The notes beneath the pieces were generated by a model. It saw only the letters and a program-made list of their open reading frames with translations. It had not been told where the DNA came from and did not search any database. From the NCBI GenBank assembly GCA_964552375.1, contig CAZKFX010000002.1, positions 1 through 63,085 on the forward strand: a DNA stretch of 63,085 nt. Direction: 5' to 3'. The DNA comes from an uncultured Candidatus Saccharibacteria bacterium (GTDB lineage: Bacteria; Patescibacteriota; Minisyncoccia; Minisyncoccales; CAZJYT01). A program made the position numbers and the translations under genes. Shown here in pieces: positions 3,794 to 29,949 of this stretch. The first letter of the stretch is position 1. Each line of letters starts with the position of its first letter.

Positions 3794-3800
3794 AATAAAT

Positions 3801-5450: not shown

Positions 5451-5457
5451 AATTAAT

Positions 5458-6693: not shown

Positions 6694-7501
6694 AAAATTT
6701 TTTAATTTTTATCATTTCTCTTTCAAATTTTTGAGAATTTTTATTATTAACGATTTTTAACCAAAATTTCACCTTTTTGAGAAATTCTCTTTCAACCAAT
6801 TCAATATCTGGCAATTGAAAATGCAATTTACTATAAAATTTAGGTGAGGAAAAAGCAACACTTTTGATTAAAGTTAGCAATTTTTCAAAAGAAGGAGTAA
6901 AAATATCTTTGTTTTCTTTTGAAAAATTATCCAAATAAAAGGAACCTGCTGTTAAACCTACAAAATGAGGAATACCTAAAATTAAAGTCATTAATTTATC
7001 ATGTTCTTTGGGAGACATCAATTTTACTTTAAAATTTCTTTTTTCTAACCAAATTTTAAATTCTTTGGCAAATTTTTTTTCTTTTGGATTTGTAGGAGTT
7101 AAAATGAAATTTAAATTTTTCTTTTTTGCCTGAGGCCCAAACAAGGGATGAGTTCCCAAAATTAGATTTTTTTTCAAAAATTTGTGCATAATTTTAAGAG
7201 GAAATTCTTTGAGAGAACAAATATCTAAAATTTTTTGATTTTTTCTTAAAAAAGGTGCTATCTCTTTTATTAAATTTTCAAAATCTTCAATTAAAACAGA
7301 AATTAAAATAAAATCTGCAAATTTTACTGCTTGTTTGTTATCTTTACAGATTTTAATATTTTGATATTTTTTAAATTTAAAAAGTTTCTCTTTTTTCAAA
7401 TCACTTACAAAAACCTCACTTTTTTGTTTGGCAAAAAACTTGGCAAAATAACTTCCCATTTGACCTCCTGCTCCCAAAATGGCAATTTTTTTAATTTCCA
7501 T
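6677..7501 (-). CDS. tyrA: Prephenate dehydrogenase
   Basis: N-terminal Rossmann motif IAILGAGGQMGSYFAKFF, plus LGTHPLFGP (HPMFGP-type motif). It sits between pheA and aroA. Confidence 0.8.
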   Translation of the reverse strand: MEIKKIAILGAGGQMGSYFAKFFAKQKSEVFVSDLKKEKLFKFKKYQNIKICKDNKQAVKFADFILISVLIEDFENLIKEIAPFLRKNQKILDICSLKEFPLKIMHKFLKKNLILGTHPLFGPQAKKKNLNFILTPTNPKEKKFAKEFKIWLEKRNFKVKLMSPKEHDKLMTLILGIPHFVGLTAGSFYLDNFSKENKDIFTPSFEKLLTLIKSVAFSSPKFYSKLHFQLPDIELVEREFLKKVKFWLKIVNNKNSQKFEREMIKIKKFFENVN

Positions 7502-8339
7502 TTTTAGCTATCGGATAAGAACCCAAAATTTTTATAAAGGTTGTCTTTTTTTTCAAGTCCTCTAAAGCTTTTTTTATTTTTTCTTCTTTAATGTTTCCAA
7601 TAAAATCCAAATAAAAATGATATTCCCAGGGCTTTCCGATAATTGGACGAGATTCAATTTTTGTCAAATTTATCTTTCTTTTGGCAAATGGTTTTAAAGC
7701 TTCATATAAAGCTCCTGGTAAATGCTTTAATCCAAAAACAATAGAAGTTTTACTTTCTTTAGTAAAATTTCTTTCAGTTTTTGAAATAACTAAAAAACGA
7801 GTGAAATTTTTTTTATTTGTCTCAATCCCTCTTTTTAAAATTTCCATTCCATAAATTTTTCCTGCCCATTCTGAAGCTACAGCTCCACTATCTTTTTTTG
7901 TTTTTCTTTTCAATATCTTTACTGCTCCAGCTGTATCATAAACTGGAATTGCTTTTACTTTCAATTTTTGTAAAAATTCTCTACACTGAGATAAGGCTTG
8001 CCAATGTGAATAAACTTTTTTTAAATTTTCAATCTTTGTTCCTTTTTTCCCTATTAAACACAACTTTATTCTCAAAATTTGCTCGCCATAAATTTTCAAG
8101 TTAAATTTTAACAAAAGATCATAGTTTTCTCCTATTGTTCCTCCCAAAGAATTCTCTATAGGCACGATACCAAAATTTGATTTTTCTTTTTTAACACTCT
8201 CAAAAACCTCATAAAAACTTTCACAAGGCAAGGTTTCTATTTTTTCACCAAAAAATTTAATTGCTGCCATTTCAGAAAAGGCTCCCTTTTCTCCCTGGAA
8301 AGAAACTTTAATCTTTTTGGATTTTTTTGGCATTTTCAA
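7491..8339 (-). CDS. pheA: Prephenate dehydratase with C-terminal ACT domain
   Basis: Signature blocks: KVSFQGEKGAFSEMAA, VPIENSLGGTIGENYD, TRFLVIS, LTKIESRPIIGKPWEYHFYLDF. Confidence 0.88.
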   Translation of the reverse strand: MKMPKKSKKIKVSFQGEKGAFSEMAAIKFFGEKIETLPCESFYEVFESVKKEKSNFGIVPIENSLGGTIGENYDLLLKFNLKIYGEQILRIKLCLIGKKGTKIENLKKVYSHWQALSQCREFLQKLKVKAIPVYDTAGAVKILKRKTKKDSGAVASEWAGKIYGMEILKRGIETNKKNFTRFLVISKTERNFTKESKTSIVFGLKHLPGALYEALKPFAKRKINLTKIESRPIIGKPWEYHFYLDFIGNIKEEKIKKALEDLKKKTTFIKILGSYPIAKNGN

Positions 8340-9243
8340 TTAAAAATTTAAATATTTTTTTGACAAAAATTAAATCTAAAGATTTCTCTTTTGCTAATTT
8401 TTGGACCATTTCCATCAATTTTTTTTCTCTTTCTTTATCTTCAATTTGTATTTGGGCTTTCTTTTTTAATTTTTTCAACTCTAAAACAATTTCTTTTCTT
8501 TTTGATAAAATTTCAATTAATCTAAAAGTTATTTTGTCTAATTTTTTTCTTAGCTTTAAAATTTCTTTCCAGGCTTTAAGTTGTTCAATAGTCAATTGAC
8601 CAGGACCTGTTTTATCTTTTAAAGCAAAATAAGAAAAGAAATTGTCTTCAATTGTTTCTAATCTTGACCTTTTCCCCAATTCTCCCATAGAAATTAAAAT
8701 TGATTTTTTTCTTTCTTTTTTTAACTGTTTTAAAAATTTTAAAATTATTTGATTTTCTCTCTTGGTTTTTGGCAAAAAAGCAAATTTTAAAATATCTGGT
8801 TTTAAAGCTTCCATTCTCTTTTTTATCTCTTTTAGCTTTTTTAAATTTACTTTATCTTTAAAATTATGATAACTCAAAATTATCTTCGTTTTTGAATTTC
8901 CTTTCAATTCCTTAGCATTCTTTTTTAATTTCTCTAAAAATTCCAATTCTATATCTAAAAAGTCAAAATTTAAAAGAATAGCTTTTTTTATCAAATTTTG
9001 CTTTTTTTCAAAAGGAATTTGAAAAACTCCACCTTCTTTTTTTTCTCTCAATGTTAAAATGAAAGGAATTTTCAATTTTTTTGAAATTTCTTTTAATTTT
9101 TCTAAATCTTTTTCACAAATTTGCAAAAAACTATCTCCTCTTATTTCAATTACTTTTGCTCCCTCTTTTTTAGCTAATTTTGTTTTGTCTATTATCTCTT
9201 TTAAATCTCCTTTAAAAAATAAAGGAACAACGATTTTTCCCAT
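8308..9243 (-). CDS. aroD: Bifunctional type I 3-dehydroquinate dehydratase / AroQ-class chorismate mutase fusion
   Basis: The N-terminal ~215 aa carry type I DHQase blocks: VIEIRGD, ILTLREKKEGG, LDIELE, IILSYHNF, ILKFAF (Schiff-base Lys position), ISMGELGKRSRL, GPGQLTIEQL. The C-terminal ~90 aa look like a chorismate mutase helix bundle: LRKKLDKITFRLIEILSKRKEIVLELKKLK ... REKKLMEMVQKLAKEKSLDLIFVKKIFKFLIENAKKIQ. Confidence 0.8.
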   Translation of the reverse strand: MGKIVVPLFFKGDLKEIIDKTKLAKKEGAKVIEIRGDSFLQICEKDLEKLKEISKKLKIPFILTLREKKEGGVFQIPFEKKQNLIKKAILLNFDFLDIELEFLEKLKKNAKELKGNSKTKIILSYHNFKDKVNLKKLKEIKKRMEALKPDILKFAFLPKTKRENQIILKFLKQLKKERKKSILISMGELGKRSRLETIEDNFFSYFALKDKTGPGQLTIEQLKAWKEILKLRKKLDKITFRLIEILSKRKEIVLELKKLKKKAQIQIEDKEREKKLMEMVQKLAKEKSLDLIFVKKIFKFLIENAKKIQKD

Positions 9244-9272
9244 ATTCTCTTTTTTAAAATGCTTCTTTTTTA

Positions 9273-9302
9273 ATTATAACTTAAAAAGCTAAAATTTAAC
9301 AA
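9273..9302 (-). promoter_or_regulatory. Candidate sigma-70-type promoter of the aro operon
   Basis: Minus strand reads TTGTTA (9302-9297), an 18-nt spacer, then TATAAT (9278-9273). This lies about 30 nt upstream of the aroD-CM ATG and directly after the upstream gene's stop. The AT-rich background raises the chance-match risk. Confidence 0.4.
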
Positions 9303-9314
9303 TAAAAATTATTC

Positions 9315-9977
9315 TCATTTCCCAGCTAAAAGAGCAGAGATAATTCCTACTAAAAATATTCCATCAAAAACCCCAGCTCCTCCAATTGATAAATATCCTC
9401 CATATTTTTGGATTTCTTTTAAATGTAAAATGTCGGCTCCAATTAAAGTTCCCAAGACTCCAGCTATAAAAGCAGTAGGAGCTGGATATTGAGGAGCAAA
9501 CAAAAGAGCAAAAACAGCAGAAAAGAACGGAGGCACAAAAACTGGCAGACAAATTCCTTTTTTTGGAATTACCCTTGCTAGACAAAAACACAAAAGAATC
9601 ATCAAAAGAGTAGCTAAAATTACTGGTTCTAAAGGAAATTTCATTTTCCAAAGGGAAAATAAAAAATAAAGAGAAAGTAAAATCGGAATTACTCCTCCCC
9701 CAAAATTAATCGCAATTCCCTCAATTTCAAAAAAAGGAATATTAAATAAATTAAAAAAATAAGATTTCTTTTTTAAAATTATTCTTTTTTTTGTAAGTGG
9801 TAAATTAAAAAAAGAACCAATTAACATTAAAAAAAGCAAAAAAAGAGTTAAAGCGGGAGAAAATCCTAAATTTTCAAACCCCAAAGTAATGATTTTAAAA
9901 TATAAAAAAACAAAAATCGCTGGTAAAGAAATAATAAAAAGAAAAATTAAAAATAAAATAGTTGGGAAATAAATCAT
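9315..9977 (-). CDS. Integral membrane protein, DUF1614-like
   Basis: Polytopic hydrophobic ORF. INFGGGVIPILLSLYF and SIGGAGVFDGIFLVGIISALL resemble DUF1614 blocks, from memory. I chose ATG 9977 (MIYFPTILF...) rather than 10049, which would overlap secA by 65 nt. Confidence 0.5.
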   Translation of the reverse strand: MIYFPTILFLIFLFIISLPAIFVFLYFKIITLGFENLGFSPALTLFLLFLMLIGSFFNLPLTKKRIILKKKSYFFNLFNIPFFEIEGIAINFGGGVIPILLSLYFLFSLWKMKFPLEPVILATLLMILLCFCLARVIPKKGICLPVFVPPFFSAVFALLFAPQYPAPTAFIAGVLGTLIGADILHLKEIQKYGGYLSIGGAGVFDGIFLVGIISALLAGK

Positions 9978-9984
9978 AAAATTT

Positions 9985-12423
9985 TCATCCGTATTTTGGC
10001 CAACAGCATTTTTTATATTTTTTTCCAGATCCACAAGGACAAGGATCATTTCTTCCTACTTTTATTTTTTCTGTTTTTTGAGAAAAATTTCTTGAAATTT
10101 CAACACTTGGTTGAAAATCAATTTGCTCAATTGGTGTTTCCAAAATTCCCCTCAAAATACCTTTTTCTAAATTTGAAAGCAATCTTTTAAAAATTTTATG
10201 ACCTTCTTGCTTATATTCTACTAAAGGATCCCTTTGTCCATATGCTCTCCATTTTACTGATTCCTTTAAAGCTTCCATTTCTTCTAAGTGGTTCATCCAT
10301 AAAAAATCTAAAGTTCTCAAAGCCAAAAACTTTGCTATTTGGTTGAAATTTTCTTTTGTAAATTTTTTACATTTTTCTTTTAAAAGTTTTTTTTCCTCTT
10401 TTGTTAAATTCCATTTCTCAATTTCTTTTTCCCAATCTTTTATTTCTAAAAACTCTCTTCTCTTTTTATAAATTATTTGTCTATGTTTGTTTAAAACATC
10501 ATCATATTCCAAAAGGTGCTTTCTCAAATCAAAATTCATTGCTTCCACTTTTGCTTGAGCTTGTTCTATCAATTTAGAAACCAAATCTGCCTCAATTGGC
10601 TCTGTTTCTGGAATTTTTAAGATTGACATTAAAGATTTAATTTTTTCTCCTCCAAAAATTCGTAACAAATCATCTTCTAAAGAAAGAAAAAATTGAGAAG
10701 AACCAGGATCACCTTGTCTTCCCGCTCTTCCTCTTAGTTGATCATCAATTCTTCTTGCTTCATGGCGTTCAGTACCAATTACATGAAGACCTCCCAATTT
10801 TCTTACTTTTTCAGCTTCAACAGGATCTGGGGGATTACCTCCTAAAATTATATCTACTCCTCTTCCTGCCATATTTGTAGCAATAGTCACTGCTCCTAAT
10901 TTTCCAGCCTGAGCTATAATTTCTCCTTCTTTTTCATGATTTTTGGCATTAAGAATCTGGTGAGTAATTCCTTCTCTTTCTAAAAGTTTTCCTAAATATT
11001 CATTATTTTCAATTGAGGTTGTTCCCACTAAAACAGGTTGTCCTTTTTGATGTCTTTTTTTAATTTCTTTGACCACTGCTTCAAATTTGCCTCTTTTTGT
11101 TTTATATACTCTATCAGGCAAATCTTTTCTAATCATTGGTTTGTTAGTAGGAATGACAATAACTTCTAAATTGTAAATTTTCTCAAATTCTTCAGCTGAA
11201 GTGTAAGCTGTTCCTGTCATTCCTGCTAATTTTTTATACATTCTAAAATAATTTTGGAAAGTAATAGAGGCTAAAGTAATAGATTCTGGTTGAATTTCAA
11301 CTCCTTCTTTTGCTTCAATAGCTTGATGAAGTCCGCCCGACCATCTTCTTCCAGGCATTAATCTTCCGGTAAATTCGTCCACAATAATTACTTTACCATC
11401 TTTGACTACATAATCCCTGTCTTTTTTAAATAAAGTGTGGGCTCTTAAAGATTGTTCCAAATAATGAAGATATTTCCATCCTTTTTGGGCATAAATATTT
11501 TCTATTCCTAAAATTTTTTCTACTTTCTCTATTCCATTTTCTGTCAAATTTACTGTTTTTAATTTTTCGTCTATTTCATAATCTTTTTCAGGATCAAGTT
11601 TAGGGATGATTTTTGAAAATTCTTTGTACCATTTTGAGCTTTCAACATCTGGAACAGAAATTATCAATGGTGTTCTTGCCTCATCAATAAGAATTGAATC
11701 TATTTCATCTATAATAGCATAATGAAAACCTCTTTGAACTCTATCTTTTAGATCATAAACCATATTATCTCTTAAATAATCAAAGCCAAATTCATGATTT
11801 GTGCCATAAGTAATATCTGCTAAATATGCTTTTTTTCTTTCGCAAGGTCTCAAAAAATCTTCTACTACTTTAAAAGAACCTAATTCATCTCTTATTTTAT
11901 CTTTTTCCCAAAGATCTTTTTTATAATCTGGATCATATAAAAAAGATTGTTCATGATTTAAGCATCCTACTTTCAATCCCAAAAGATGATAAATTTGGCC
12001 CATCCAGACAGTATCTCTTCTTGCTAAATAATCATTAACAGTTACCAAATGACAACCTTTTTCTTCTAAAGCATTTAAATAAAGAGGTAAAGTGGCAGTC
12101 AAGGTTTTTCCTTCTCCGGTTTTCATTTCAGCAATTTTTCCTTCATGTAAAACAATTCCTCCCATCAATTGAACATCAAAATGTCTTTGACCCAAAGTTC
12201 TTTTGGCAGCTTCTCTAACTAAGGCAAAGGCTTCTGGTAAAATATCATTTAGTGTCTCTCCTTTTTTCAATCTTCTTTTAAATTCTAAGGTTTTCTCTTT
12301 AAAATCTCTTTCAGAGAATTTTTCAAACTCTGGCTCCAAAGAGTTTATTTTATCTACAATTTTCTTTAGCTTTTTTAAATATTTATCATGAGGATTACCA
12401 AAGATTTTTTCTAAAAGACCCAT
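9985..12423 (-). CDS. secA: Preprotein translocase ATPase SecA
   Basis: Signature blocks: [14 protein letters not shown] (Walker A), [32 protein letters not shown], and the C-terminal zinc motif [13 protein letters not shown]. 812 aa. Confidence 0.97.
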
Positions 12424-12453
12424 AAAAAGTTAATTTTTTAAAAAGAGAAAAAA

Positions 12454-12723
12454 TTACTTTTTAGAAAGAGAGGCAAGCAATTTTGCCATTTTTGATTTTT
12501 TTCTTTTAGCTGTATTCTCTTTTATTACTTTTTCTTTTACTGCTTTGTCTAAAAATTTATAAAAAGTAGGTAACATCTCTTTAGCTTTTTCAATTTCTTT
12601 TTTCTCTATTAATTTTTTAATTTCTTTTGCCAATTTTTTTATCCTCTTTTTATGAAAAAGATTGTGGGCTCTTTTCCTTAAACTTTGTCTTAAAGCTTTT
12701 TTGGCTGATTTAGTTTTTGGCAT
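12454..12723 (-). CDS. rpsT: 30S ribosomal protein S20
   Basis: MPKTKSAKKALRQSLRKRAHNLFHKKRIK is a typical S20 N-terminus. I prefer the start at 12723 over 12741. It overlaps the uvrB 3' end by 14 nt. Confidence 0.85.
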   Translation of the reverse strand: MPKTKSAKKALRQSLRKRAHNLFHKKRIKKLAKEIKKLIEKKEIEKAKEMLPTFYKFLDKAVKEKVIKENTAKRKKSKMAKLLASLSKK

Positions 12724-14668
12724 ATGTTTTTTCTTTACCACTTTTTATTTTTTTAATCAAGTCTCTAATTTCGGCTGCTCTTTCAAAATCCAAATTCTTG
12801 GCTGCTTGTCTCATTTCTTTTTCTAAAAGTTTAATATCTCTCACCATACTAAATTCTGCTAAAACCTCTTTCTCGCTTGAAACAAAAGGCCAATCTCTTA
12901 TGGGTTTTACTATAGGTTTTGGAGAAATTTTGTGCTCTTTGTTGTATTTTTCTTGAATTTTCCTTCGCCTTTTTATTTCATCAATAGCTTTTTTCATTGA
13001 TTTTGTAATTTTATCAGCATATAAAATACAATGTCCTTCTGGATGTCTTGCTGCTCTTCCCATTATTTGAATTAAGGTAGTATCTGATCTCAAAAAACCT
13101 TCTTTATCAGCATCCAAAATTCCAATTAAAGCTACTTCTGGTAAATCTAAACCTTCTCTTAACAAATTAATTCCTACCAAAACATCGTATTTTCCTTCTC
13201 TTAATTCTTTTAAAATTTGAGGCCTTTTTAGAGTTTTTATTTCAGAATGGAGCCATTGGCAAGAAATTTTTTCTTGTTCTAAATAATCTGAAAGAGTTTC
13301 TGCCAATCTTTTTGTTAAAGTCAAAACCAAAGTTCTTTGTTTTTTTGCAATTCTTTTTTTAATTTCTTCAATCAAATCTTTGACTTGATTTTTTGTTGGC
13401 CTGATTTCAACTGAAGGTTCTAACAATCCGGTAGGTCTTATTAATTGTTCTACTATATATTTCCCTGCTTTTTTTCTTTCATATTCTTGAGGAGTAGCAG
13501 AGACATAAATTATTTGATTTATTTTTTGATTAAATTCCTCAAAAGTTAAAGGTCTATTATCAATAGCAGAAGGTAATCTAAATCCATATTCAATTAAAGT
13601 TTCTTTTCTTGATCTGTCTTGCTTTGCCATAGCCTGCAATTGAGGAATTGTCAAATGAGATTCATCCACAAACACCAAAAATTCTTTTTTAAAATAATCT
13701 AACAAAGTAAAAGGAGGGCTACCTGGTTCTCTAAATTCTAAATGTCTTGAATAATTTTCAATTCCGTGACAATAACCTGTTTGTTCTATCATTTCCAAAT
13801 CATATTTTGTTCTTTGTTCCAATCTTTGAGCTTCTAAAAATTTTTTCTGTTTTTTCAATTCTTTTACTCTTTCTTGCAATTCCAATCTAATATTCTCTAA
13901 AGCAATTTTTAGCTTTTCTTGAGGAGTTACCCAAAAATGAGCAGGATAAAGTCTAAAATTTGAAATTTGTTTTTTAAATTCCATTTTCAAATCAGCTTGA
14001 GCTATTGAAAGTTTGTCAATTTCATCTCCAAAAAATTCTACTCTTAAAATTTCTTTTCCTGTGACTAAAAAAATATCAATTATATTTCCTCTTGCTCTAA
14101 AACTTGAAGGTAAAAAATCATAATCTCGTCTTTGATAACCAAGAGAAACCAAATGGGAAATAAAATCTTTCCTTTTTATTTTCTTTCCTACTTTTAACTC
14201 TAAAGAAACCTTTTGATAATCTTCAGGAGAACCAATATTGTAAATACAAGAAACAGAAGCAACAACAATAACATCATCTCTTGTCAAAACATCCTGAACC
14301 GCACTATGTCTCAATCTATCAATTTCCTCGTTAATTTTGGCATCTTTTTCAATGTAGGTATCTGTTTGAGGGATATAAGCTTCTGGTTGATAATAATCAT
14401 AATAACTAACGAAAAAATTCACTCCAGCATCAGGAAAAAATTCTTTAAATTCTTGATATAATTGAGCAGCCAAAACCTTGTTTGGAGAAATAACCAAAAC
14501 AGGTTTTTGAATTTTTTCAATAACACTAGCCATAGTCATTGTCTTTCCAGAACCAGTCACTCCCAACAATACTTGATGTTTCACCCCAGCTTTTAAATTT
14601 TTAACTAATTTTTCAATTGCTTGGGGTTGATCTCCTGTGGGTTTAAAGGGACTTTTTAATTTAAACAT
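12710..14668 (-). CDS. uvrB: Excinuclease ABC subunit B
   Basis: Signature blocks: LLGVTGSGKTMTMA (Walker A), VFVDESH, and the C-terminal UVR motif LEKEMRQAAKNLDFERAAEIRD. 652 aa. Confidence 0.97.
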   Translation of the reverse strand: MFKLKSPFKPTGDQPQAIEKLVKNLKAGVKHQVLLGVTGSGKTMTMASVIEKIQKPVLVISPNKVLAAQLYQEFKEFFPDAGVNFFVSYYDYYQPEAYIPQTDTYIEKDAKINEEIDRLRHSAVQDVLTRDDVIVVASVSCIYNIGSPEDYQKVSLELKVGKKIKRKDFISHLVSLGYQRRDYDFLPSSFRARGNIIDIFLVTGKEILRVEFFGDEIDKLSIAQADLKMEFKKQISNFRLYPAHFWVTPQEKLKIALENIRLELQERVKELKKQKKFLEAQRLEQRTKYDLEMIEQTGYCHGIENYSRHLEFREPGSPPFTLLDYFKKEFLVFVDESHLTIPQLQAMAKQDRSRKETLIEYGFRLPSAIDNRPLTFEEFNQKINQIIYVSATPQEYERKKAGKYIVEQLIRPTGLLEPSVEIRPTKNQVKDLIEEIKKRIAKKQRTLVLTLTKRLAETLSDYLEQEKISCQWLHSEIKTLKRPQILKELREGKYDVLVGINLLREGLDLPEVALIGILDADKEGFLRSDTTLIQIMGRAARHPEGHCILYADKITKSMKKAIDEIKRRRKIQEKYNKEHKISPKPIVKPIRDWPFVSSEKEVLAEFSMVRDIKLLEKEMRQAAKNLDFERAAEIRDLIKKIKSGKEKTYAKN

Positions 14669-14680
14669 AATCTAATTTTA

Positions 14681-17185
14681 TTAATATCTTTTTATAATCT
14701 CAAATTTATCTGTAATTTCAATCTTTTCTCCTTTTTTTATTTTTCCTGCCAAAATTGCTTCTGCTAAAAGATTTCCTATTTTCTCTTGAATTACTCTTTC
14801 CATAGGTCTAGCTCCAAACTCTGGAGAAAACCCAAGTTCTACTATTTTCTCTTTTAGAGGTTGGGTAATTATCAAATCAATTCCCTTTTCTTTTAATTTT
14901 AATTGAATTTCCTTTAGCAAAATTTCTGAAATTTCTAACAAATTTTCTTTAGAAAGAGGTTTGAAAGCAACCACTGCATCAAAACGATTTAACAATTCTG
15001 GTCTAAAAATTCCATTTTTAATTAAATAATCTATTAATTCTTTTTGAAATTCCTTCCAAGGTTTATTTTTTCTAACCGCCTCAAAAATTAATTGATAACC
15101 TGCATTGGAAGTACAAATTAAAATTGTATTTTTAAAATTAACTTTTCTTCCTAAACCATCTGTCAAATGTCCTTCATCTAAAACCTGCAAAAACAAATTT
15201 AAAATATTGGGATGAGCTTTTTCAAACTCATCTAACAAAACTAAAGAAAAAGGTTTTTCTCTTACAGGTTGAGTAAGTAATCCTTCTTGTTCTCTTGAGC
15301 CTAAAAGTCGGGAAATATCATTTAAGGTCTGAAATTCAGACATATCTAATCTAATTATTCTTTTTTCAGAACCAAAATAAATTTTAGCTAAAACTTTAGC
15401 GGTTTGAGTTTTTCCAACCCCTGTAGGTCCCAAAAACAAAAAGCTTCCCATGGGTCCTTTTCTTACTTTCAATTCCGTTCTTGCCCTTCTTAAAGCAGAG
15501 CAAATTTCTTTAATAGCTTGCTCTTGATCAATTAATCTTTGATGAATTAATTTTTCCAAATTCAAAAGAATTTTTCTTTCTTTTGATTCAATCTCACCTA
15601 CTGGAATTTTGGTTCTTTCTTTAATTACATAATGGACATGTTTTGAAAGCAAAACCTTTTCTTGAGTTTGAGTCAAATAAATAATGGTTTCTTCTAACAA
15701 ATCAATTGCCTTTTCTGGAAAAGGAATAGCGGGAAGATATTTTTTTGAAAGCTTAATAATATCTCTTAATGCTAAATAAGAAATTAATTTTTTGTATTTT
15801 CTTTCTAAAAATAAAGCCAATCTCATTAACAAAATTAATGTCTCTTTTTCTGAAATTTCAGAAATCTCTACTTTTTCAAAAAGTTCTAACATTAAAGGAT
15901 TTAATTCAATATATCTATGTAATCCTTCAAAGGTGGTAATAGCAATAGTTTGAAATTCAGCTAAATGTAAATAAGAAGATAAAATTCCAGAAATATTCAC
16001 CATTCCAGGGCCTGTGCTTTGTCCTACATAGTTGTGAAATTTATCAATAACCAAAATTACATTTTTAGCTGAGATTACTTCTTTAAAAATTTTATCTAAA
16101 GTTAATTCTACAAGATGGGGATCTAAAATTTGAGCTTGCAATTTGGCAATATTTAATAAAACAAATCTCTTGTGATTTATTTGAGGTAAACTCTCACCCA
16201 AATCACTTTTTACTGCTAAAGCATAAACCAAACTTTTTCTTCCACTTCCTTTTTCTCCAACTATTAAAACATCATTTTTGCTTTCTTGACGAGCCAAAAT
16301 TCTCTCTGCTTCTTTCAATTCCTCTTCGTGTCCTAAAAAGTCTGGATATCCTTGTCTTCTTACTACCCTTGTCAAATCAATAGAAAATCTATCTAAAGTA
16401 ATTGTAAAACCTGCTGCCCAATCTCTGGCAATAGATCCCCATTTTACTAAATTTTTCCATTCCCAAAATTTTTTTTGTTCATTTGTTTTATTAACTAAAT
16501 ATTCATAAACAGAAATTAAATTTTCCAAATCTTCAATTTTAATCTCAATTTCAATCAAGAGCTTTTGAAAAATCAAATTATATTTTGCCAAAGCCAACAA
16601 TAAATCTTGGGGTTTTACTCTTTCATGTCCTTTTTTTTGAGCAATTTTCAAACTTTCAAAAATTACCTTTTCAAAATTTTCTTTTTCGTCTTTTAATTTC
16701 CTTAAATATTTTGCTAAAAATTTTTGCAATTGCTTTGAACTTAAATTTATTCTCAAAAAAATAAAATCTAACTCTGGACATTTCTCTAAAAGATGATAAA
16801 AAAGCGAAAAAGTATTCTTTTTTGATTTTAAAATAACTTTAGCTACCTCAAAACTTAAAAATTCTGCCAAATTATATTTTTTTGGATCTTTTAAGGCTTC
16901 TTTGAGAGTTATTTTTAATTTTGGATTTTTTAATTTTGTCTCAAAAAAAACTTTTTGATACCAACTAAATATAAAAAATGGCAAAAAAAAGAGACAAATT
17001 CCTAAAAATCGTTTTTGAAGAGAAAAAGAAAAGGTATTAATTTTATAACCTGCTAAAAATAAAATTAAAAAAATCAAAAACAAAATCCCAAACAGTTTTT
17101 GAAAAAAGGGGGCAAATTTGAAAGCTGGATCTTTTGACAACTTTATTGCTTTAAAGATTTTTGTTTTTTTTAAATCAAAATTCAT
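14681..17185 (-). CDS. Membrane-anchored Clp/Hsp100-family AAA+ ATPase (degenerate first module, intact second module)
   Basis: N-terminal hydrophobic helices (FGILFLIFLILFLAGY, FLGICLFFLPFFIFSWY) are followed by Clp_N-like repeats (LSFEVAKVILKS..., VIFESLKIAQKKGHERVKPQDLLLAL). Module 1 has VGEKGSGRKS and VIDKFH. Module 2 has LGPTGVGKTQTAK, LVLLDEFEKAHPNILNLFLQVLDEGHLTD and GARPMERVIQ. I saw no long ClpB M-domain and no IGF/VGF ClpP-docking loop. Confidence 0.8.
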   Translation of the reverse strand: MNFDLKKTKIFKAIKLSKDPAFKFAPFFQKLFGILFLIFLILFLAGYKINTFSFSLQKRFLGICLFFLPFFIFSWYQKVFFETKLKNPKLKITLKEALKDPKKYNLAEFLSFEVAKVILKSKKNTFSLFYHLLEKCPELDFIFLRINLSSKQLQKFLAKYLRKLKDEKENFEKVIFESLKIAQKKGHERVKPQDLLLALAKYNLIFQKLLIEIEIKIEDLENLISVYEYLVNKTNEQKKFWEWKNLVKWGSIARDWAAGFTITLDRFSIDLTRVVRRQGYPDFLGHEEELKEAERILARQESKNDVLIVGEKGSGRKSLVYALAVKSDLGESLPQINHKRFVLLNIAKLQAQILDPHLVELTLDKIFKEVISAKNVILVIDKFHNYVGQSTGPGMVNISGILSSYLHLAEFQTIAITTFEGLHRYIELNPLMLELFEKVEISEISEKETLILLMRLALFLERKYKKLISYLALRDIIKLSKKYLPAIPFPEKAIDLLEETIIYLTQTQEKVLLSKHVHYVIKERTKIPVGEIESKERKILLNLEKLIHQRLIDQEQAIKEICSALRRARTELKVRKGPMGSFLFLGPTGVGKTQTAKVLAKIYFGSEKRIIRLDMSEFQTLNDISRLLGSREQEGLLTQPVREKPFSLVLLDEFEKAHPNILNLFLQVLDEGHLTDGLGRKVNFKNTILICTSNAGYQLIFEAVRKNKPWKEFQKELIDYLIKNGIFRPELLNRFDAVVAFKPLSKENLLEISEILLKEIQLKLKEKGIDLIITQPLKEKIVELGFSPEFGARPMERVIQEKIGNLLAEAILAGKIKKGEKIEITDKFEIIKRY

Positions 17186-24023: not shown

Positions 24024-25130
24024 CTACCTTTTCCCAAGTGAAATTTCTTCCAAATTGCCAGGCTTTTTTCTGGTTTTTTCTATCTCTTGGGGATTTTGAA
24101 TTAAATAAGAAATTACTGAACAGATAGAATTTACATTTTCAAACTCAATAAAAAATCTCCTTTTCTCTCTTAACATCTCTTTGGCATAAATAAAAGGAGT
24201 GGAAATTACGCAATTTCCGGTAGTGATAGCATTGGTTAAGGTGCCACTAGATACTTGCTCTTTGGTTTGGTAAGGAAGTAAAATTAAATCTGGAATTTTC
24301 AAATAATTTATAAGTTCTTTTAAAGGAAAGAGTTTTTTTACAAAAACTACATTTTCTTCCAAATTTAATTTTTTTATAAAAAGTTTGAATTCTTTTAAAT
24401 AATTTTTGGCAGGATGTAAAGGATGAGGGCCTCCTAAAAATATTAATTTTGCCTGAGGATAAAGAGGATGAATTTCAGAAAAAGCTTTTAAAGCCTCTTC
24501 ATAACCCTTATGAGGAGTGATAAATCCAAAAATTAAAATTACAATATTTTTTTCAAGTCCCAATCTCTTTTTAGCTTCAAAACAAGAAATTTTAGGAAAA
24601 GAAATACTTCCGTGAGGAATAATTTTTATTTTGGAAGAATTTTTACAAATTTTTTGAAGTCTTTTTTTTCCAATTTCACACATTACAACCATTTTTTTAA
24701 AAAACAAAGAAAGCTTTTTTAAAAGAGTTATTAATTCTTTCTTTTTTTTATCTAATTTTCCTTGGGGATTGGGTAGAGAATGCATTATTCCTATTGCAGG
24801 CTTTTTAATTGTCTTTAAAAAATGAATCAAATATTCCCCGTTTTTGCCACCATAAATGTTAAATTCATGATGAATTATTGCTAAATTAAAAGGAGATTTA
24901 TTAAAAAATTCTCCTGCTTTTTGATAATCTTTTAAATTTTCTTTTTGAACTTTCATTATTACCTCTCTTGGATATTTAAATTTTTGATTTGGAGGAACTA
25001 CCGCTATTACTTTCCATTTAATTTTGGGGTCAGCTTTTGAAATAGCTTTTGCCATTTCTTTGGCAAAACAAGCTATTCCACAGGGTTGAGGAGGAAAAGA
25101 GCAAAAATATAAAATATTGAGCTCTTTCAT
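24024..25130 (-). CDS. GT4-family (GT-B fold) glycosyltransferase with an apparent 3'-terminal frameshift
   Basis: GT-B / GT4-like layout: LYFCSFPPQPCGIACFAKE at the N-terminus, ILIFGFITPHKGYEEALKAF, LLPYQTKEQVSSGTLTNAITTGNCVISTP. The conserved C-terminal helix (AWQFGRNFTWEKVAEKIVEICNKAKRKIW*) is encoded in another frame down to 23974 (see findings). Confidence 0.8.
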   Translation of the reverse strand: MKELNILYFCSFPPQPCGIACFAKEMAKAISKADPKIKWKVIAVVPPNQKFKYPREVIMKVQKENLKDYQKAGEFFNKSPFNLAIIHHEFNIYGGKNGEYLIHFLKTIKKPAIGIMHSLPNPQGKLDKKKKELITLLKKLSLFFKKMVVMCEIGKKRLQKICKNSSKIKIIPHGSISFPKISCFEAKKRLGLEKNIVILIFGFITPHKGYEEALKAFSEIHPLYPQAKLIFLGGPHPLHPAKNYLKEFKLFIKKLNLEENVVFVKKLFPLKELINYLKIPDLILLPYQTKEQVSSGTLTNAITTGNCVISTPFIYAKEMLREKRRFFIEFENVNSICSVISYLIQNPQEIEKTRKKPGNLEEISLGKR

Positions 25131-25179: not shown

Positions 25180-26019
25180 TTAAAAATCAGAAAGAGTTTT
25201 TTGAACTCTCTTTGGGTAGATTTTTTCAAGATCTTTTGCGTTTTCTTTTGGAATAACTCCTTGGTTTTCTTTTAAAATTTTTACAATTTTTTCTACTCTT
25301 TGTAAAAAAGCTGAAATTTCTCTTTGGTCCAAAAGCTCTTCTTTTTCTATGATTTTCTTAAACTCGTCTTTTCTTTCTGAAAGAAAATCTTCTAAATCTT
25401 TTAATAATTCTGGAGGAAGTTTTTTGTCTAATATTTCAGGATTTATTTCCAAAGGTCTTTCAAAAAAACTCTCTTCATTATCAATGGCATATATTTGAGA
25501 TTTGTTTTCATCAATCAAAATATTTCCTCTTCTATCTTTGTGAGCAATAATGTAATCAAGAACCCAAAGATAAAACAATTGATTTTCTATATTATTTGGA
25601 ATTTTTCCTTTAAATTTTTCTTTTGAAAAAACTTGAGCTTCAGGAATCCACAATTGAAAAGAACCTTTTTCTTTTATTGTTTCTTCAACTCCTGAAATTT
25701 TAATTTTTATTTCCATTTCTCTAATCTCTGTAGGAGGAACCAAAGACAACTGAGGAAATAAAAATTTGCTTAAAAGATAAACCGCTTTTTCTTTTCTGTT
25801 AAGTTCACCTCTACCTGGTTTAAAAATTCCAGAAATTCCAGAGTCTAAATTTACTAAAAAAACATTAAAAGGCTTACCTAATACTTTTTCTGATTTAATT
25901 AAGAAAGCTTCTTTTGGATTTTCAGTTTCTAATTTTTTTAAAATTTCTCTTTCTTTCTCATTTATTGGCAATTCAATTTCTTTTTTTAAAATTTTTTCTC
26001 TTGATTCTCTCATTTTCAA
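25180..26019 (-). CDS. Type II phosphatidylinositol-4-kinase-like (PI3/PI4-kinase superfamily) protein
   Basis: Blocks align with the human PI4K2A sequence as I remember it. [13 protein letters not shown] matches [22 protein letters not shown] matches [20 protein letters not shown] matches [31 protein letters not shown] matches [30 protein letters not shown] matches VAAIDNGLAF. Its start overlaps the upstream stop (26016-26019). Confidence 0.6.
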   Translation of the reverse strand: [279 protein letters not shown]

Positions 26020-28487
26020 AGCTCTTTTAATTTTGCTCTTTTTATAATTTCTCTCTCTACAGCTTTTTTGGGTCTTGAGTATTTCAATTTTGAAATTTTT
26101 TTAATAATTTCTACTATCTCTGGATTTCCTTTTTTGGGAGGCAAAGTCTGCATTTTAAAAGGAGAAGAAATTTTATTTTTAATCATCAATTTAATAATTA
26201 CATTAAAATTATCTAAATTTACTAAATCATATCTGGAAAATTCAGGCTCAAATTGTTTTTCTAAAAATTCAGCATCTGTTGCTCCAACCCTTAAAGCTGC
26301 AATAGTCCCTACATTTCCCATTACCGCATTTCTAATTTCTTCTTTTAATTGAGGAATGTATTGATGGGCTAAAATTAAATTTAATCTATATTTTCTTGCC
26401 TCAGATAAAATTACAGCAACAGAATCTGTAGTAAAATTTTGAAACTCATCAATGTATAAATAAAAGTCTCTTCTCTGTTCTTCTGGAATTTTAGCTCTCT
26501 TCATTGCCGCCATTTGCATTTTAGAAACCAAAATTAAACCTAAAAGAGAACTGTTTACCTCTCCAGTCAATCCTTTTGATAAATTTGCCAAAAATATTTT
26601 CCCTTCATCCATAATTTTTGACAAATCAAAACTAGAATGAGATTGACCAATAATATTTCTCATCATCTCATTTTCTACAAATCTTCCTACTTTTGAGACC
26701 ACATAACCTAACATATCTGATTTTGTCTCTCCAGTGGTTTGGCGCCATTCTTTTAACCAGAAATTTCTTACTAAGGGATCAGTTACCTTTTTCAATTTGC
26801 TTTCCATAAAATCATCGTCTGTAAAAATTCTGGGGATTTCGACTAAAGTTCCTGGATTTTTTTGATCTGCCATCAAAGCTAACATTGCATTTCTCATATA
26901 ATGTTCAAACATAGGACCTATAATTTCTGGAGGGAACAATTTGTGAAAAATGGCTATCATTTCAGAAACCGCAAAATCTTTCTGTTCTGGGGTTTCGTAT
27001 TCTAACATATTCAACCCCATTGGTCTTTCCAAATCAAAAGGTTCAAACAAAACAACATCATCAATTCTTTCTTTTGGAATATTAGCTAATGTAGCCTCAA
27101 TTAAATCACCGTGAGGATCAATTACCCCTACTCCCCTCCCTGCTTTAATATCTTGTCTTATCATTTCTCTTAACAAGGTTGATTTTCCAGTTCCAGTTTG
27201 TCCTACAATATAAAAATGTCTCCTTCTATCTTCTACAGAGGCCATATAAACCATCTTTTCTTCTCCTCTAAAAACTACCTTTCCTATTAAAATTTCTCCA
27301 AAAGAAGGCAATTCTACTGGTGGTGGAGCACTAGTACTTTTTACTGATTTTATATAAGGTGTTTCAATAAATTTGGTTGGGAAATGATAAATACTTGTCA
27401 ATTCTTCCACATTTAAAATTATTTTTTGACTATTGTCAAAATTGCGAAAACTAAAATCATAAATTAATTTTTTCAGTCTTCTCCCTGTTAATCTTTGACA
27501 ATAAAAGCTATTCATTGAAAGCAAAGAAAATTGACCAAAAGCTGATTCCAAATGAGTTAAAATTTCTCTTGCTCTTTCTTTTGTCTGAGCTGAAGCTAAC
27601 AGCCTAATATTTACCTCAAAAACCCTTTTTTGAATTTTCTCTTCTATGGCTTTAATTGTTCTTTCTTCAACTCGCATTTCTTTTTGAGGTTGAGTAGGTG
27701 AAGTTTGGTTTGGTTTTTGTAATTGTGGTTTTTTAGTAAAAATTCCACCAAAAAAATTAAAGATTAAATCTAAAATCCAATTTCTTGAAGCTTCATTTAT
27801 CGCTTGTCTTAAAGATTTTCCTTCTTTTATTTTGGCCAACAATCTTTCTCCCATTATTTTCCATTTTTCTTCCGGAAAAGGTCTTAAAATTAATTGAAGA
27901 GCAGCTCCTTCTTCTGGGTTTATTTTAGAAAGAGAATCAGTAATCAGAGAGAGGGGATCTTTTTCCAAAGTTTTATAAGTGTTAAGAGGAAAAAAAGCTT
28001 TTTCTGTTAATTTAAGATAGGCGCCAGCTGTCTCACCTCCTGGTTCAAAAATTGTGTAATCTTGAGGAATTTTTTCTATTATTGCTCTTGGATAAACTCC
28101 GTGAATATATTTTTCAATAGCTGATTCTAAAAATTTGGGAACCGCAATATAAAAAGAAATATCATTTTCTCCCAATTGAGAAGCAATTTCTAAGGCAATT
28201 TCTATGGGGCTTTCAAAAAATTTTTTTCTAAATTGCAAAAAATTGGCATAAATTTGTTCCATTTGAGCAATTATTTGTTTTTCTTGAATTGTCTCTCCTT
28301 CTTTCTTTTTCTCATATTTTGGCATCGTCACCAAAAAAAGCACTTTATTTAAAGAACGAAATATTCTCTCTTTTTTATTCTTTTGATTCCAAAAAAAGTA
28401 CAAAATTAAAACCAAAAAAGAGAAAATTAAAAAAGAGAGAATTTGAAAAAAATTGACTTCAAAATTCTTAAATAAAATTTCTCTCAT
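26016..28487 (-). CDS. Membrane-anchored VirD4/TraG/TraD-like (type IV coupling-protein-like) P-loop NTPase
   Basis: N-terminal TM helix (FFQILSFLIFSFLVLILYFFW), then a ~380-aa domain of unknown type, then HFYIVGQTGTGKSTLL (Walker A), GVGVIDPHGDL, FYLYIDEFQNF (Walker B) and EARKYRLNLILAHQYIPQL (TraG-D_C-like end). HerA/FtsK-like alternatives are not excluded without a search. Confidence 0.7.
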   Translation of the reverse strand: MREILFKNFEVNFFQILSFLIFSFLVLILYFFWNQKNKKERIFRSLNKVLFLVTMPKYEKKKEGETIQEKQIIAQMEQIYANFLQFRKKFFESPIEIALEIASQLGENDISFYIAVPKFLESAIEKYIHGVYPRAIIEKIPQDYTIFEPGGETAGAYLKLTEKAFFPLNTYKTLEKDPLSLITDSLSKINPEEGAALQLILRPFPEEKWKIMGERLLAKIKEGKSLRQAINEASRNWILDLIFNFFGGIFTKKPQLQKPNQTSPTQPQKEMRVEERTIKAIEEKIQKRVFEVNIRLLASAQTKERAREILTHLESAFGQFSLLSMNSFYCQRLTGRRLKKLIYDFSFRNFDNSQKIILNVEELTSIYHFPTKFIETPYIKSVKSTSAPPPVELPSFGEILIGKVVFRGEEKMVYMASVEDRRRHFYIVGQTGTGKSTLLREMIRQDIKAGRGVGVIDPHGDLIEATLANIPKERIDDVVLFEPFDLERPMGLNMLEYETPEQKDFAVSEMIAIFHKLFPPEIIGPMFEHYMRNAMLALMADQKNPGTLVEIPRIFTDDDFMESKLKKVTDPLVRNFWLKEWRQTTGETKSDMLGYVVSKVGRFVENEMMRNIIGQSHSSFDLSKIMDEGKIFLANLSKGLTGEVNSSLLGLILVSKMQMAAMKRAKIPEEQRRDFYLYIDEFQNFTTDSVAVILSEARKYRLNLILAHQYIPQLKEEIRNAVMGNVGTIAALRVGATDAEFLEKQFEPEFSRYDLVNLDNFNVIIKLMIKNKISSPFKMQTLPPKKGNPEIVEIIKKISKLKYSRPKKAVEREIIKRAKLKEL

Positions 28488-28879
28488 TTTTTAAATTTTT
28501 TAAAAAACCCATCTTTTGCTAAAATATCATGGAAAACATCTAAAATATAAGGGTCATCAAGTTTTTGAGCCACTTTAACTGCAAAAGAAATTCCATAAAC
28601 TTGAGCCAAATCTAACAATTTTGTAATTTTTCCTTTAGCATCCAAAGTTTTAATTTTTTGAGCTTTAAAATTAATTTTTTGTTGAGCCTTAGGAGAAAAT
28701 TTCATTAATTCAATTTCTCTTTTTAGCTTTTCTTTAATTATTTTCTCTCTTTCGGTCAAAACTTCTTTTTTTTCTGTCTTTTTTTCTATTACCTCTTCAA
28801 AAACTTTCTCTACTAATTTTTCTGGTTTTTCAATCCCAATTTCTTTTTTTTCTTTATATTTTTTATTTTTTTCCACCAT
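28484..28879 (-). CDS. Hypothetical small protein (charged N-terminal half, helical C-terminal domain)
   Basis: 131-aa ORF starting 5 nt after the murF-like stop. Its own stop overlaps the ATPase start (28484-28487). C-terminal block: ITKLLDLAQVYGISFAVKVAQKLDDPYILDVFHDILAKDGFF. No family recognised. Confidence 0.5.
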   Translation of the reverse strand: MVEKNKKYKEKKEIGIEKPEKLVEKVFEEVIEKKTEKKEVLTEREKIIKEKLKREIELMKFSPKAQQKINFKAQKIKTLDAKGKITKLLDLAQVYGISFAVKVAQKLDDPYILDVFHDILAKDGFFKKFKK

Positions 28880-28884
28880 AAAAT

Positions 28885-29949
28885 TTACTTTAATTTGATT
28901 TTCTCAACAACGCTTTCCATTTTCATTTCTTTTGAACCCAAAACTAAAATTAAATCATTTTCTCTAATTTCATTTTTTAATTTTTCTATCCCTTCTTTTA
29001 TTGTATCAAATTGAAAAATTTTTTCTAAAGGCAAACCTTTTTCAAAAGCCCCCTTGGCCACAAACTTTGCTCTCTGACCAAAAGTAAATAAAAGATCACA
29101 ACATTCTTTTAACTTTTCTCCCAACATTTGATGAATTTCAATTGTATATTTACCCAATCCTACAATATCTCCTAAAACAGCAATTTTTCTTTTAAAAAGA
29201 GAAATTTTTTTAAAAATTTCTAAAGCCTCCATAATTGAAAAGATTCCTTCTATTTTAGAATTATCAAAAATTTTAGAATTTTTTATTCCACAAATTAATC
29301 TCATTTTTCCTGGTCTTCCCTTATAACCCTTCAAAGATTGAGTAATTTCAATTAAATTTAAATTCAAAACCTTACACAAAGCACAAGTTGCCAAAACAGC
29401 AAAAATATATTCTTTACCAAATAAATTTTCTAACCAAATGGGTAAAATTTTATTTTCAAAATTTAATTTAAAATTTGTCCCTGAATTTATTTTAATATCT
29501 GTTGCTTTAAAATCAGCTAAATTCGCAAAACCAAAAGTAATTTCTCTTAAATTAGTCTCGTCTCTAATCTCTCTGATTGTTTCGTCATCATAATTTAAAA
29601 TTAAATAGCCGAAAGGAGGCAATTTTTTAGCATATTTTCTAATTTCTTTTGTCTTTTCTCTTTCTCCAGCAAAAAAATCTTTATCATGAGGAATTTCTCC
29701 AATATGAGTTAAAATTAAAATTGGCAATTGAGAAAGAGAAACAAATTTTTCTACTTTTTTCTCTTTTTTAAAATCTATTTTTTCTACTAAAATATCTCTT
29801 TTTTTACCTAAAACCTTTTCAATAATGTCAAAAGTAATTTCTTTACCATTGCCCCAAACCATTACTACTTTTGGTTTTTTAAAAAGAAATCTCCAAAAAT
29901 TGAAAAAAGAAAAATTATTCATAATCTGGAGGAATTTCTTTGTAAGCAA
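28885..29949 (-). CDS. Mur-ligase-family protein, MurF-like, lacking the N-terminal domain and with an atypical P-loop
   Basis: The central and C-terminal Mur ligase domains are recognisable: LTHIGEIPHDKDFFAGEREKTKEIRKYAK, GYLILNYDD, KGYKGRPGKMRL, IAVLGDIVGLGKYTIEIHQMLGE, DLILVLGSKEMKME. The P-loop region reads VWGNGKEIT, not the usual GSNGKTTT. The start is uncertain: 29949 overlaps ftsI by 35 nt, and the alternatives are 29922 and 29862. Confidence 0.6.
   Translation of the reverse strand: MLTKKFLQIMNNFSFFNFWRFLFKKPKVVMVWGNGKEITFDIIEKVLGKKRDILVEKIDFKKEKKVEKFVSLSQLPILILTHIGEIPHDKDFFAGEREKTKEIRKYAKKLPPFGYLILNYDDETIREIRDETNLREITFGFANLADFKATDIKINSGTNFKLNFENKILPIWLENLFGKEYIFAVLATCALCKVLNLNLIEITQSLKGYKGRPGKMRLICGIKNSKIFDNSKIEGIFSIMEALEIFKKISLFKRKIAVLGDIVGLGKYTIEIHQMLGEKLKECCDLLFTFGQRAKFVAKGAFEKGLPLEKIFQFDTIKEGIEKLKNEIRENDLILVLGSKEMKMESVVEKIKLK

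Follow-up and report, generated by a model that had tools for sequence, protein, structure and literature searches.

Type II phosphatidylinositol (PI) 4-kinases (PI4KII) are commonly regarded as having arisen in eukaryotes in connection with membrane trafficking. In PI4KIIα (PI4K2A), a Cys-rich palmitoylation insertion (CCPCC) with an amphipathic helix is needed for activity and membrane integration, the replacement K152A inactivates the enzyme, as do F263A/I345A, ADP is contacted by Q261, and D308 lies within the catalytic loop (Zhou et al. 2014, PMC3974213). The PI pocket of this enzyme is itself putative, derived from molecular dynamics simulation and mutagenesis, and includes E157, Y159, R181, L184, T307, D308 and L349, of which R181 and L184 sit on the palmitoylation insertion (PMC3974213). 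The type II enzymes of plants (PI4K-γ) have protein-kinase but no lipid-kinase activity (PMC3741686), and in Streptomyces a bacterial protein, SCO1664, has been linked to mshC, which is inositol-related (PMC4255298). Here, a gene for a bacterial kinase related to both groups was examined in a 63,085 nt stretch of DNA from an uncultured Candidatus Saccharibacteria bacterium (assembly GCA_964552375.1, contig CAZKFX010000002.1; the whole stretch is referred to as the window).

The open reading frame (ORF) lies on the minus strand (coordinates 25180 to 26019) and encodes 279 aa from a TTG start at 26019, or 277 aa (P0001) from the ATG at 26013 chosen by gene callers. The TTG overlaps the stop codon (26016-26018) of the preceding gene, which encodes a P-loop ATPase, and the ATG lies 2 nt past it. 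The predicted protein, recovered identical in two assemblies, contains no Cys, has a near-neutral isoelectric point and a maximum 19-residue hydropathy of 1.0, and no membrane or hydrophobic segment was found in the hydropathy profile of the 279 aa sequence. On homology, motifs and a predicted structure, it corresponds to a soluble, minimal kinase domain of the PI4KII/SCO1664 type. Overall, it is likely to be an active PI4KII-related bacterial kinase with a remodelled substrate pocket, from a subclade of the candidate phyla radiation (CPR) that lacks a small partner protein encoded beside most of its relatives.

Homology with the type II PI 4-kinase catalytic core

The kinase is homologous to the catalytic core of PI4KII by profile and by fold. 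A relationship with PI4KII had been proposed in a preliminary description, and it stands as far as this core is concerned; the palmitoylation and PI-pocket insertion is missing, so the protein is PI4KII-like only. The similarity exceeds chance but is remote and needs profiles or structure for significance, because a search of the PDB with the single sequence (phmmer) did not detect PI4K2A and returned nothing relevant. A k-mer/word-indexed homologue search with the protein found no match besides itself, and BLASTP aligned it with a C-lobe fragment of PI4K2A (E=0.001, 38% identity across 55 aa). For the protein by itself, PF00454 matched with E=2.7e-4, across residues 147-210 only, and TIGR03843, the model for the SCO1664 family, with E=1.7e-10.

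When 1.84 billion cluster representatives were scanned exhaustively with HMMER, 200 relatives were recovered at E<=1e-3, the nearest with 44% identity, and 60 relatives from this search made up the family profile and alignment (A1) to which all conservation counts given here refer. When the profile was compared with the PDB, the best matches were PI4K2B (1.4e-18) and PI4K2A (5.8e-16), followed by FAM20A/C (~1e-12 to 1e-9), Vps34 (2e-3) and then PI 3-kinase-related kinases (PIKKs). PF00454 was matched by 56 of the 60 relatives at E<=0.01 (best 3e-16), TIGR03843 by all 60 and HipA_2, weakly, by 19, and a precomputed PF00454 annotation was present on 30 of 43 database relatives. FAM20 proteins (Fam20C, Fam20B, Fam20A) and HipA-like kinases thus form a second tier of profile and structure matches with scores far weaker than those of PI4KII. 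This fold group phosphorylates proteins and sugars besides lipids; unlike the window kinase, FAM20 proteins are larger, secreted and disulfide-rich, and HipA has extra N-terminal subdomains and a helix-turn-helix (HTH) antitoxin partner.

Nine family members are longer, up to 2154 aa, with matches confined to PF00454, Fam20C and HipA_2, and such fusions gave no clue to function. The 2154-aa relative (P0134) has three separate PF00454 kinase stretches (E=1.1e-23), and in P0009 and P0025 (~690 aa) the kinase domain is C-terminal with the remainder unannotated.

AlphaFold2 (AF2) gave no confident model from the kinase sequence alone (mean predicted local distance difference test score, pLDDT, 39), whereas a 43-sequence alignment gave a model with a pLDDT of 89.5 and a predicted template modelling (TM) score of 0.86. 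The modelled chain has an N-lobe sheet, a helix C (residues 71-87), a long hairpin leading into the hinge and a helical C-lobe, that is, the bilobal kinase fold with the catalytic-loop DRxxxN and DFG-equivalent Asp (D162, R163, N166 and D180) in place. The first Foldseek match was PI4K2A (4hnd_A; E=1e-8, TM 0.55 normalised to the query), with PI4K2B, Fam20C, Vps34 (class III PI 3-kinase), PI4KIIIβ and mTOR (a PIKK) at later ranks, and the probability was 1.00 for PI4K2A/B, Vps34, PI4KIIIβ and mTOR. The structural comparison suggested in the preliminary description therefore came out in favour of the relationship.

The five PI4K2A-like blocks on which that description was based are present, in order, in the 279-aa ORF, and the PI4K2A strings it had given, including AAIDNGLAF, appear verbatim in the PDB alignments. 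The first is the β-3 strand GIFKPGRGE (residues 64-72; coordinates 25804 to 25830, minus strand, as for all segments that follow), which carries the ATP-binding Lys K67 (PI4K2A K152; Lys in 59 of 60 relatives) and E72 (PI4K2A E157; Glu in 53 of 60). The helix-C segment (residues 75-87; 25759 to 25797), which lies within the modelled helix, aligns E77 with the Glu of PI4K2A SEAGA. The block LSLVPPTEI (residues 91-99; 25723 to 25749) includes an invariant P95 and a nearly invariant T97, and leads into a β-hairpin segment (residues 100-118; 25666 to 25722; modelled strands 97-108 and 111-123). A 12-residue extension of this hairpin is peculiar to the window kinase, in which 19 residues separate I99 from G119 (family median, 7).

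The hinge and nucleotide-pocket block (residues 119-128; 25636 to 25665) contains Q122 (PI4K2A Q261) and W124 (PI4K2A F263); G119 and Q122 are present in 60 of 60 relatives and position 124 is aromatic in 60 of 60. The catalytic loop (residues 153-170; 25510 to 25563) contains D155, D162 (PI4K2A D308; 59 of 60), R163 (57 of 60) and N166 (60 of 60), and the DFG-equivalent YAIDNEESF (residues 177-185; 25465 to 25491) contains I179 (PI4K2A I345) and D180 (PI4K2A D346; 60 of 60). In the last block, the window kinase has E182-E183 where the family has G-L (Gly at 182 in 43 of 60, Leu at 183 in 31 of 60), and the family Leu aligns with L349 of the putative PI pocket. By the alignment and the AF2 model, a C-lobe helical bundle (residues 203-251; 25267 to 25413) with an invariant R241 is conserved in both the CPR clade and the SCO1664 clade described below.

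Compared with the type II enzymes of known structure (PI4K2A/B; 4hnd/4hne, 4pla and 4wtv), which gave the best structure and profile matches, the window kinase therefore has the bilobal fold and, in the same order, the FKP Lys, the SE-A-Y helix-C Glu, VP-T, the GSFQ-F hinge, the LDYII--DR--N catalytic loop and AIDN, and the C-lobe helices also align. It differs in being bacterial and ~270 aa rather than the ~350 aa of their catalytic domain.

K67, E72, E77, Q122, W124, D155, D162, R163, N166, I179, D180 and N181 are all kept, and all are invariant or nearly so among the 60 relatives. The catalytic Asp and Asn and the metal-binding Asp had already been read correctly from the sequence (D162, N166 and D180), as had the ATP Lys. 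As the nucleotide-binding and catalytic residues are all intact, an active kinase, considered plausible beforehand, is likely, and the protein is probably an intact, ATP-dependent, catalytically active phosphotransferase with a PI3/PI4-kinase fold. It falls within the wider PF00454-type superfamily, and the eukaryotic type II enzymes are its nearest characterised relatives. By homology with PI4KIIα, K67 on β-3, held by E77 of helix C, would bind the ATP phosphates, hinge residues Q122 and W124 would form the adenine pocket together with I179, N166 and D180 would bind Mg2+, and D162 would serve as catalytic base towards a hydroxyl group of the substrate.

The CPR clade, the SCO1664 family and an 86-aa partner

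Related loci were collected by a scan of GTDB species representatives with one peptide pattern, which recovered 71 loci, so that the numbers are not a census. The CPR lineages represented are Minisyncoccia, Azambacteria, Woesebacteria, Daviesbacteria, Staskawiczbacteria, Sungbacteria, Zambryskibacteria and Saccharibacteria, and the others are Chloroflexota and Actinomycetota (Corynebacterium, Arthrobacter, Micropruina and Streptomyces). A compact kinase of ~270 aa with a PI4KII-type active site is thus widespread in CPR/Patescibacteria.

A neighbour-joining distance tree of 117 sequences (268 profile columns, calculated without support values) split a CPR clade from an Actinomycetota/Chloroflexota clade containing SCO1664. 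The window kinase grouped with the CPR sequences, among which it shares a long, basal branch with P0002 and P0006. Its nearest neighbours in the tree are P0002, P0004, P0009 and L014. The window kinase is 25-44% identical to members of the CPR clade and has the same length and motif set; it and P0002 differ from the others in having no adjacent 86-aa partner, a short N-lobe loop, KDRRGN and IDNEE.

Aligned with each other, profiles of the CPR and SCO1664 clades showed homology from end to end (hhalign probability 100%, E=7.8e-49). The SCO1664 proteins resemble the window kinase in size, in FKPxxGE, RERAAYL, VPPTVIR, GSxQ and DR, and in a C-terminal ELL..EV.A...R helix, but the window kinase scores below the equivalog level of that family and belongs to the separate CPR clade. 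The CPR profile was also closer to PI4K2B (70 bits) than was the SCO1664 profile (29.5 bits, E=4e-6), and DRxxxN and IDNG are common to the CPR clade and PI4KII, where SCO1664 proteins have DRKxGH and IDHG. The CPR kinase clade is thus sister to the actinobacterial and Chloroflexi SCO1664 family and, judged from these alignments, closer in sequence to PI4KII, forming the most PI4KII-like bacterial group among those compared. The relationship with SCO1664-type proteins, which the preliminary description had proposed to examine by phylogeny, was therefore found. In the TIGRFAMs notes on its neighbourhood, SCO1664 is already listed as a probable PI-kinase-related kinase, and many database entries of the CPR clade already bear automatic PF00454 labels; the newer points here are the closeness of the CPR clade to PI4KII and the conserved 86-aa partner.

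The gene contexts of the two clades are distinct. Actinobacterial SCO1664 genes are directly preceded by a gene for a phosphoglycerate-mutase-like His_Phos_1 protein (L026, L032 and L043; ~3200-3950), and those of Chloroflexota and Streptomyces by one for DUF3090 (L062, coordinates 3210-3782; L079, 3210-3872), so that a kinase/phosphatase/DUF3090 neighbourhood is conserved around SCO1664 genes. None of His_Phos_1, DUF3090 and mshC was found at the CPR kinase loci or in the window.

At the CPR loci, a gene for a protein of 85-88 aa is found directly downstream of the kinase gene in five of six metagenomic contexts and upstream in the sixth (L001, coordinates 8830-9096; L005, 8873-9133; L007, 6860-7117; L008, 6909-7169; L009, 5387-5647; L003, 7732-7995), and it adjoins the kinase gene in 12 further CPR loci from GTDB (L013, L015-L021, L023, L029, L034 and L038). 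This protein of ~86 aa is better conserved than the kinase (62% mean column identity versus 26%), with the motifs VEIYKLQNDGSQ...FPKDG..FLEQLKYNFKSGYLNAS and ...FKSGYLNAS and with a conserved S74-G75-Y76 as a candidate acceptor of phosphate. Its relatives form at least 362 clusters, all of them stand-alone proteins from Patescibacteria annotated as 'hypothetical protein', and it was never fused among the 120 matches listed. It had no match in Pfam, NCBIfam, PADLOC or the PDB, and a comparison with DUF3090, of which it might have been a truncated form, gave an hhalign probability of 0.1%. The kinase and the 86-aa protein constitute an undescribed module that is found with most members of the CPR clade. 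The occurrence of a conserved kinase with its usual small partner in such reduced genomes suggests an important phosphorylation step in CPR.

In two of the six metagenomic contexts the module is adjoined by AbiEi/AbiEii genes (L008, coordinates 9008-9739; L009, 3155-4509), and L008 also has a nearby GIY-YIG gene, DUF3800 and a restriction enzyme. The AbiE adjacency may reflect location in variable regions.

A six-frame search of the window gave no gene for the 86-aa partner (best match, E=1.2), neither the partner nor a second kinase was found in the window and the 77 kb of its contig that were covered (~75% of that contig), and no partner gene was found adjoining P0002. A protein of 131 aa (p131) encoded close to the window kinase was rejected as a divergent form of the partner (hmmsearch E=5.4). 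The divergent subclade that includes P0002 would thus have lost the partner and kept its own variant active-site rim, and the window gene offers a naturally partner-free variant with a remodelled pocket, useful for comparison.

Substrate pocket and competing explanations

The part of the window kinase that departs from PI4KII is the predicted substrate side. The loop from K67 to E77 is 9 residues long, whereas the family median is 20 and the corresponding segment of PI4K2A, of ~40 residues, contains the CCPCC insertion; with this short loop and no Cys, the palmitoylation insertion of type II enzymes is absent, as are its amphipathic helix, the equivalents of R181 and L184, and the RK-rich membrane insertions and other membrane-binding elements. 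Just two residues of the putative PI pocket have retained counterparts, E157 (E72) and D308 (D162); K161 takes the place of T307 and E182-E183 that of G348-L349, and Y159 could not be aligned. As the insertion that carries the palmitoylation site and half of the putative PI pocket is missing, the protein is unlikely to be a PI 4-kinase proper. We conclude from these comparisons that the window kinase has a predicted PI4KII-like ATP site and a substrate site that is not PI4KII-like, remodelled by the shortening of the N-lobe loop to 9 residues and the presence of IDNEE for IDNGL, and lipid-kinase activity is unlikely. Such a minimal soluble core would provide a tractable model of the PI4KII catalytic scaffold minus its membrane insertions.

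The fold does not fix the class of substrate, because plant type II PI4Ks act on proteins and FAM20B, a xylosylkinase found among the profile matches (PDB 5xom), acts on a sugar. As the same fold takes lipids, proteins and sugars, the earlier decision to leave the substrate open was sound. The features of the pocket suggest that a soluble protein or a small hydroxylated metabolite is the most likely substrate, rather than membrane PI. The gene product adds a new and divergent member to a kinase group that is known but has not been characterised, and should be annotated as 'PI3/PI4-kinase-like (type II/SCO1664-like) protein, substrate unknown', and not as a PI 4-kinase.

One possibility, which we put forward tentatively, is that the kinase is a protein Ser/Thr kinase that in most CPR acts on, or is regulated by, the 86-aa partner, and that has been retargeted in the partner-free subclade to another protein, possibly one encoded in the same operon, such as the ATPase, p131 or the glycosyltransferase. 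Protein kinases with the type II PI4K fold are known (plant PI4K-γ), the next-best relatives, FAM20C and HipA-like proteins, are protein kinases, and the tightly linked 86-aa protein, with its higher conservation, is a plausible substrate or regulator; the start of the kinase gene also abuts the ATPase stop codon. Against this, the neighbourhood of ATPase, p131 and glycosyltransferase is peculiar to this organism, no phospho-acceptor site could be identified, and, as FAM20B and PI4KII demonstrate, sugars and lipids are substrates of this fold too.

A small-molecule kinase, comparable to FAM20B or to the role presumed for SCO1664, is likewise possible, if short of probable; its substrate would be a sugar, a precursor of the cell wall or of a glycan, or another hydroxylated metabolite. 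The position of SCO1664 genes beside His_Phos_1 and DUF3090 and near mshC suggests a pair that phosphorylates and dephosphorylates a metabolite, the window gene lies between MurF-like/FtsI and glycosyltransferase/MurA genes, some relatives are near glycosyltransferase clusters, and a cationic or amino-sugar substrate might fit the acidic rim formed by IDNEE. However, the neighbourhoods in CPR are heterogeneous, the CPR loci have neither the phosphatase nor DUF3090, and no gap in a metabolic pathway was identified.

Several results count against the explanation favoured here, an active PI4KII-related kinase with a remodelled pocket. The PF00454 match proposed as a check in the preliminary description was obtained, and extends to most of the family, but the score of the kinase protein alone (21.4 bits) is under the gathering threshold of 27.1 bits, and its TIGR03843 score (40.7 bits) does not reach the curated equivalog cut-off of 172.4 bits. 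The TM-scores of the model to PI4K2A are just 0.50-0.55. The window kinase deviates at family-conserved positions (R78K, G182E, L183E and loss of the GTxY loop), and these substitutions, together with its long branch, could reflect relaxed constraint. The case against a PI substrate leans on missing eukaryotic insertions and on a PI pocket that is itself putative, and a literature search found nothing on CPR PI4K-like kinases, nor on SCO1664 function beyond the linkage to mshC.

The long branch, the lost partner, the substituted R78, G182 and L183 and the deleted GTxY loop are also what would be expected of a pseudokinase or ATP-binding scaffold, a remnant degenerating after loss of the 86-aa partner, and FAM20A is a precedent for a pseudokinase in this fold group. 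This is nonetheless unlikely, as all residues for ATP binding and phosphotransfer are kept, the intact ORF is closely packed with its operon neighbours, and the AF2 model is confident throughout the core. P0002, at just 44% identity, has the same short N-lobe loop, KDRRGN and IDNEE, and these features would therefore be selected traits of the subclade and not signs of decay. The recovery of an identical protein from two assemblies likewise favours a functional gene.

A genuine PI or inositol-lipid 4-kinase acting on lipids that the CPR cell scavenges from its host (PI, for instance, if the host is an actinobacterium) would fit the best sequence and structure matches (PI4K2A/B), the retention of E72 and D162, and the link of the sister SCO1664 family to inositol-related mshC in Streptomyces (PMC4255298). 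We regard it as very unlikely, given the absence of the R181/L184 insertion, the replacement of L349 by Glu and T307 by Lys, the lack of Cys and of any amphipathic or hydrophobic membrane element, a near-neutral isoelectric point, plant type II PI4Ks that do not have lipid-kinase activity (PMC3741686), and the lack of a conserved PI-synthesis context around family members in the six metagenomic contexts.

The toxin of a HipA-like toxin-antitoxin or defence module, which the weak HipA_2 matches of 19 relatives, the typical two-gene organisation with a small protein and the AbiEi/AbiEii genes adjoining two modules might suggest, can be set aside as extremely improbable, as there was no PADLOC defence-family match, the small protein is encoded downstream and has no detectable HTH or family match, the family occurs across many streamlined CPR lineages in housekeeping contexts, and the window gene has no small partner.

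The CPR clade also provides a starting point for tracing the origin of eukaryotic PI4KII. A broader proposal, which we consider doubtful at present, is that this clade is the closest prokaryotic relative of PI4KII, that its module with the 86-aa protein is a new phospho-signalling or modification system, and that the IDNEE subclade is a partner-free derivative with a new substrate tied to a cell-envelope/ATPase operon. If this were true, the kinase and 86-aa module might represent the prokaryotic stock of PI4KII.

Gene neighbourhood in the window

The kinase gene lies in a minus-strand division and cell wall (dcw) cluster in the order MraZ, RsmH, a 107-aa ORF, FtsI, a short MurF-like ligase, p131, ATPase, kinase, glycosyltransferase, MurA and MreB. 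The ATPase gene (26016 to 28487, minus strand), whose stop codon abuts the kinase start, encodes an 823-aa membrane-anchored P-loop protein with DUF8128, DUF87/HerA and TrwB/VirD4-like family matches, and it is preceded by the gene for the K/E-rich p131 (28484 to 28879, minus strand). The glycosyltransferase gene (24024 to 25130, minus strand), 49 nt downstream of the kinase gene, belongs to the GT1/GT4 family on its matches, and its adjacency to a kinase gene was seen only in the organism's own contigs.

In the preliminary description, the coupled ATPase was one candidate for the substrate, and the comparative data went against this. At least 461 relatives of the ATPase were found, and 80 loci with 63-76% identity were kept; a p131 homologue was directly upstream of the ATPase gene in 70 of the 80, making it the conserved partner of the ATPase, and a kinase-like gene was present in none. 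At the closest syntenic locus, with FtsI, MurF-like, p131 and ATPase genes, an unrelated 616-aa K/E-rich ORF was found downstream instead of the kinase. Conversely, among the six metagenomic contexts and the GTDB loci of related kinases, no ATPase was found apart from that in the organism's own contigs, L011 and L012, the large ORFs adjoining the kinase at L022 and L028 being GyrA and an unknown protein. Across the CPR members the neighbouring genes vary, among them those for RNase III, RNase Y, ribosomal proteins and AbiE, and a cell-wall context is not conserved.

As the neighbourhood is not conserved, the kinase gene appears to be a lineage-specific insertion, and the idea of the ATPase as substrate has no comparative support; no functional link between the kinase and the neighbouring ATPase should be annotated. 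The gene would have been inserted after the p131-ATPase pair within the dcw cluster, and is probably co-transcribed with the pair.

The p131-ATPase pair (26016-28879, minus strand) is sometimes found just after FtsI and MurF-like genes in other genomes, and PADLOC reported a mad8-like match for the ATPase (E=1.5e-18). The Mur ligase of the dcw cluster (28885-29949, minus strand) is 354 aa long, with partial Mur_ligase_M and Mur_ligase_C matches and no N-terminal domain match. Elsewhere in the window, a type I restriction-modification system (HsdR-like helicase and HsdM methylase) begins just after a tRNA-Ser gene (62647-63085, plus strand, and onward; L165, coordinates 11464-15430). At 4356-9243 (minus strand), Pfam labels identify a contiguous late shikimate and Phe/Tyr cluster, unusual for a CPR-like reduced genome, with genes for chorismate synthase, AroA (EPSP synthase), prephenate dehydrogenase, prephenate dehydratase with an ACT domain, and a fusion of DHquinase_I and chorismate mutase.

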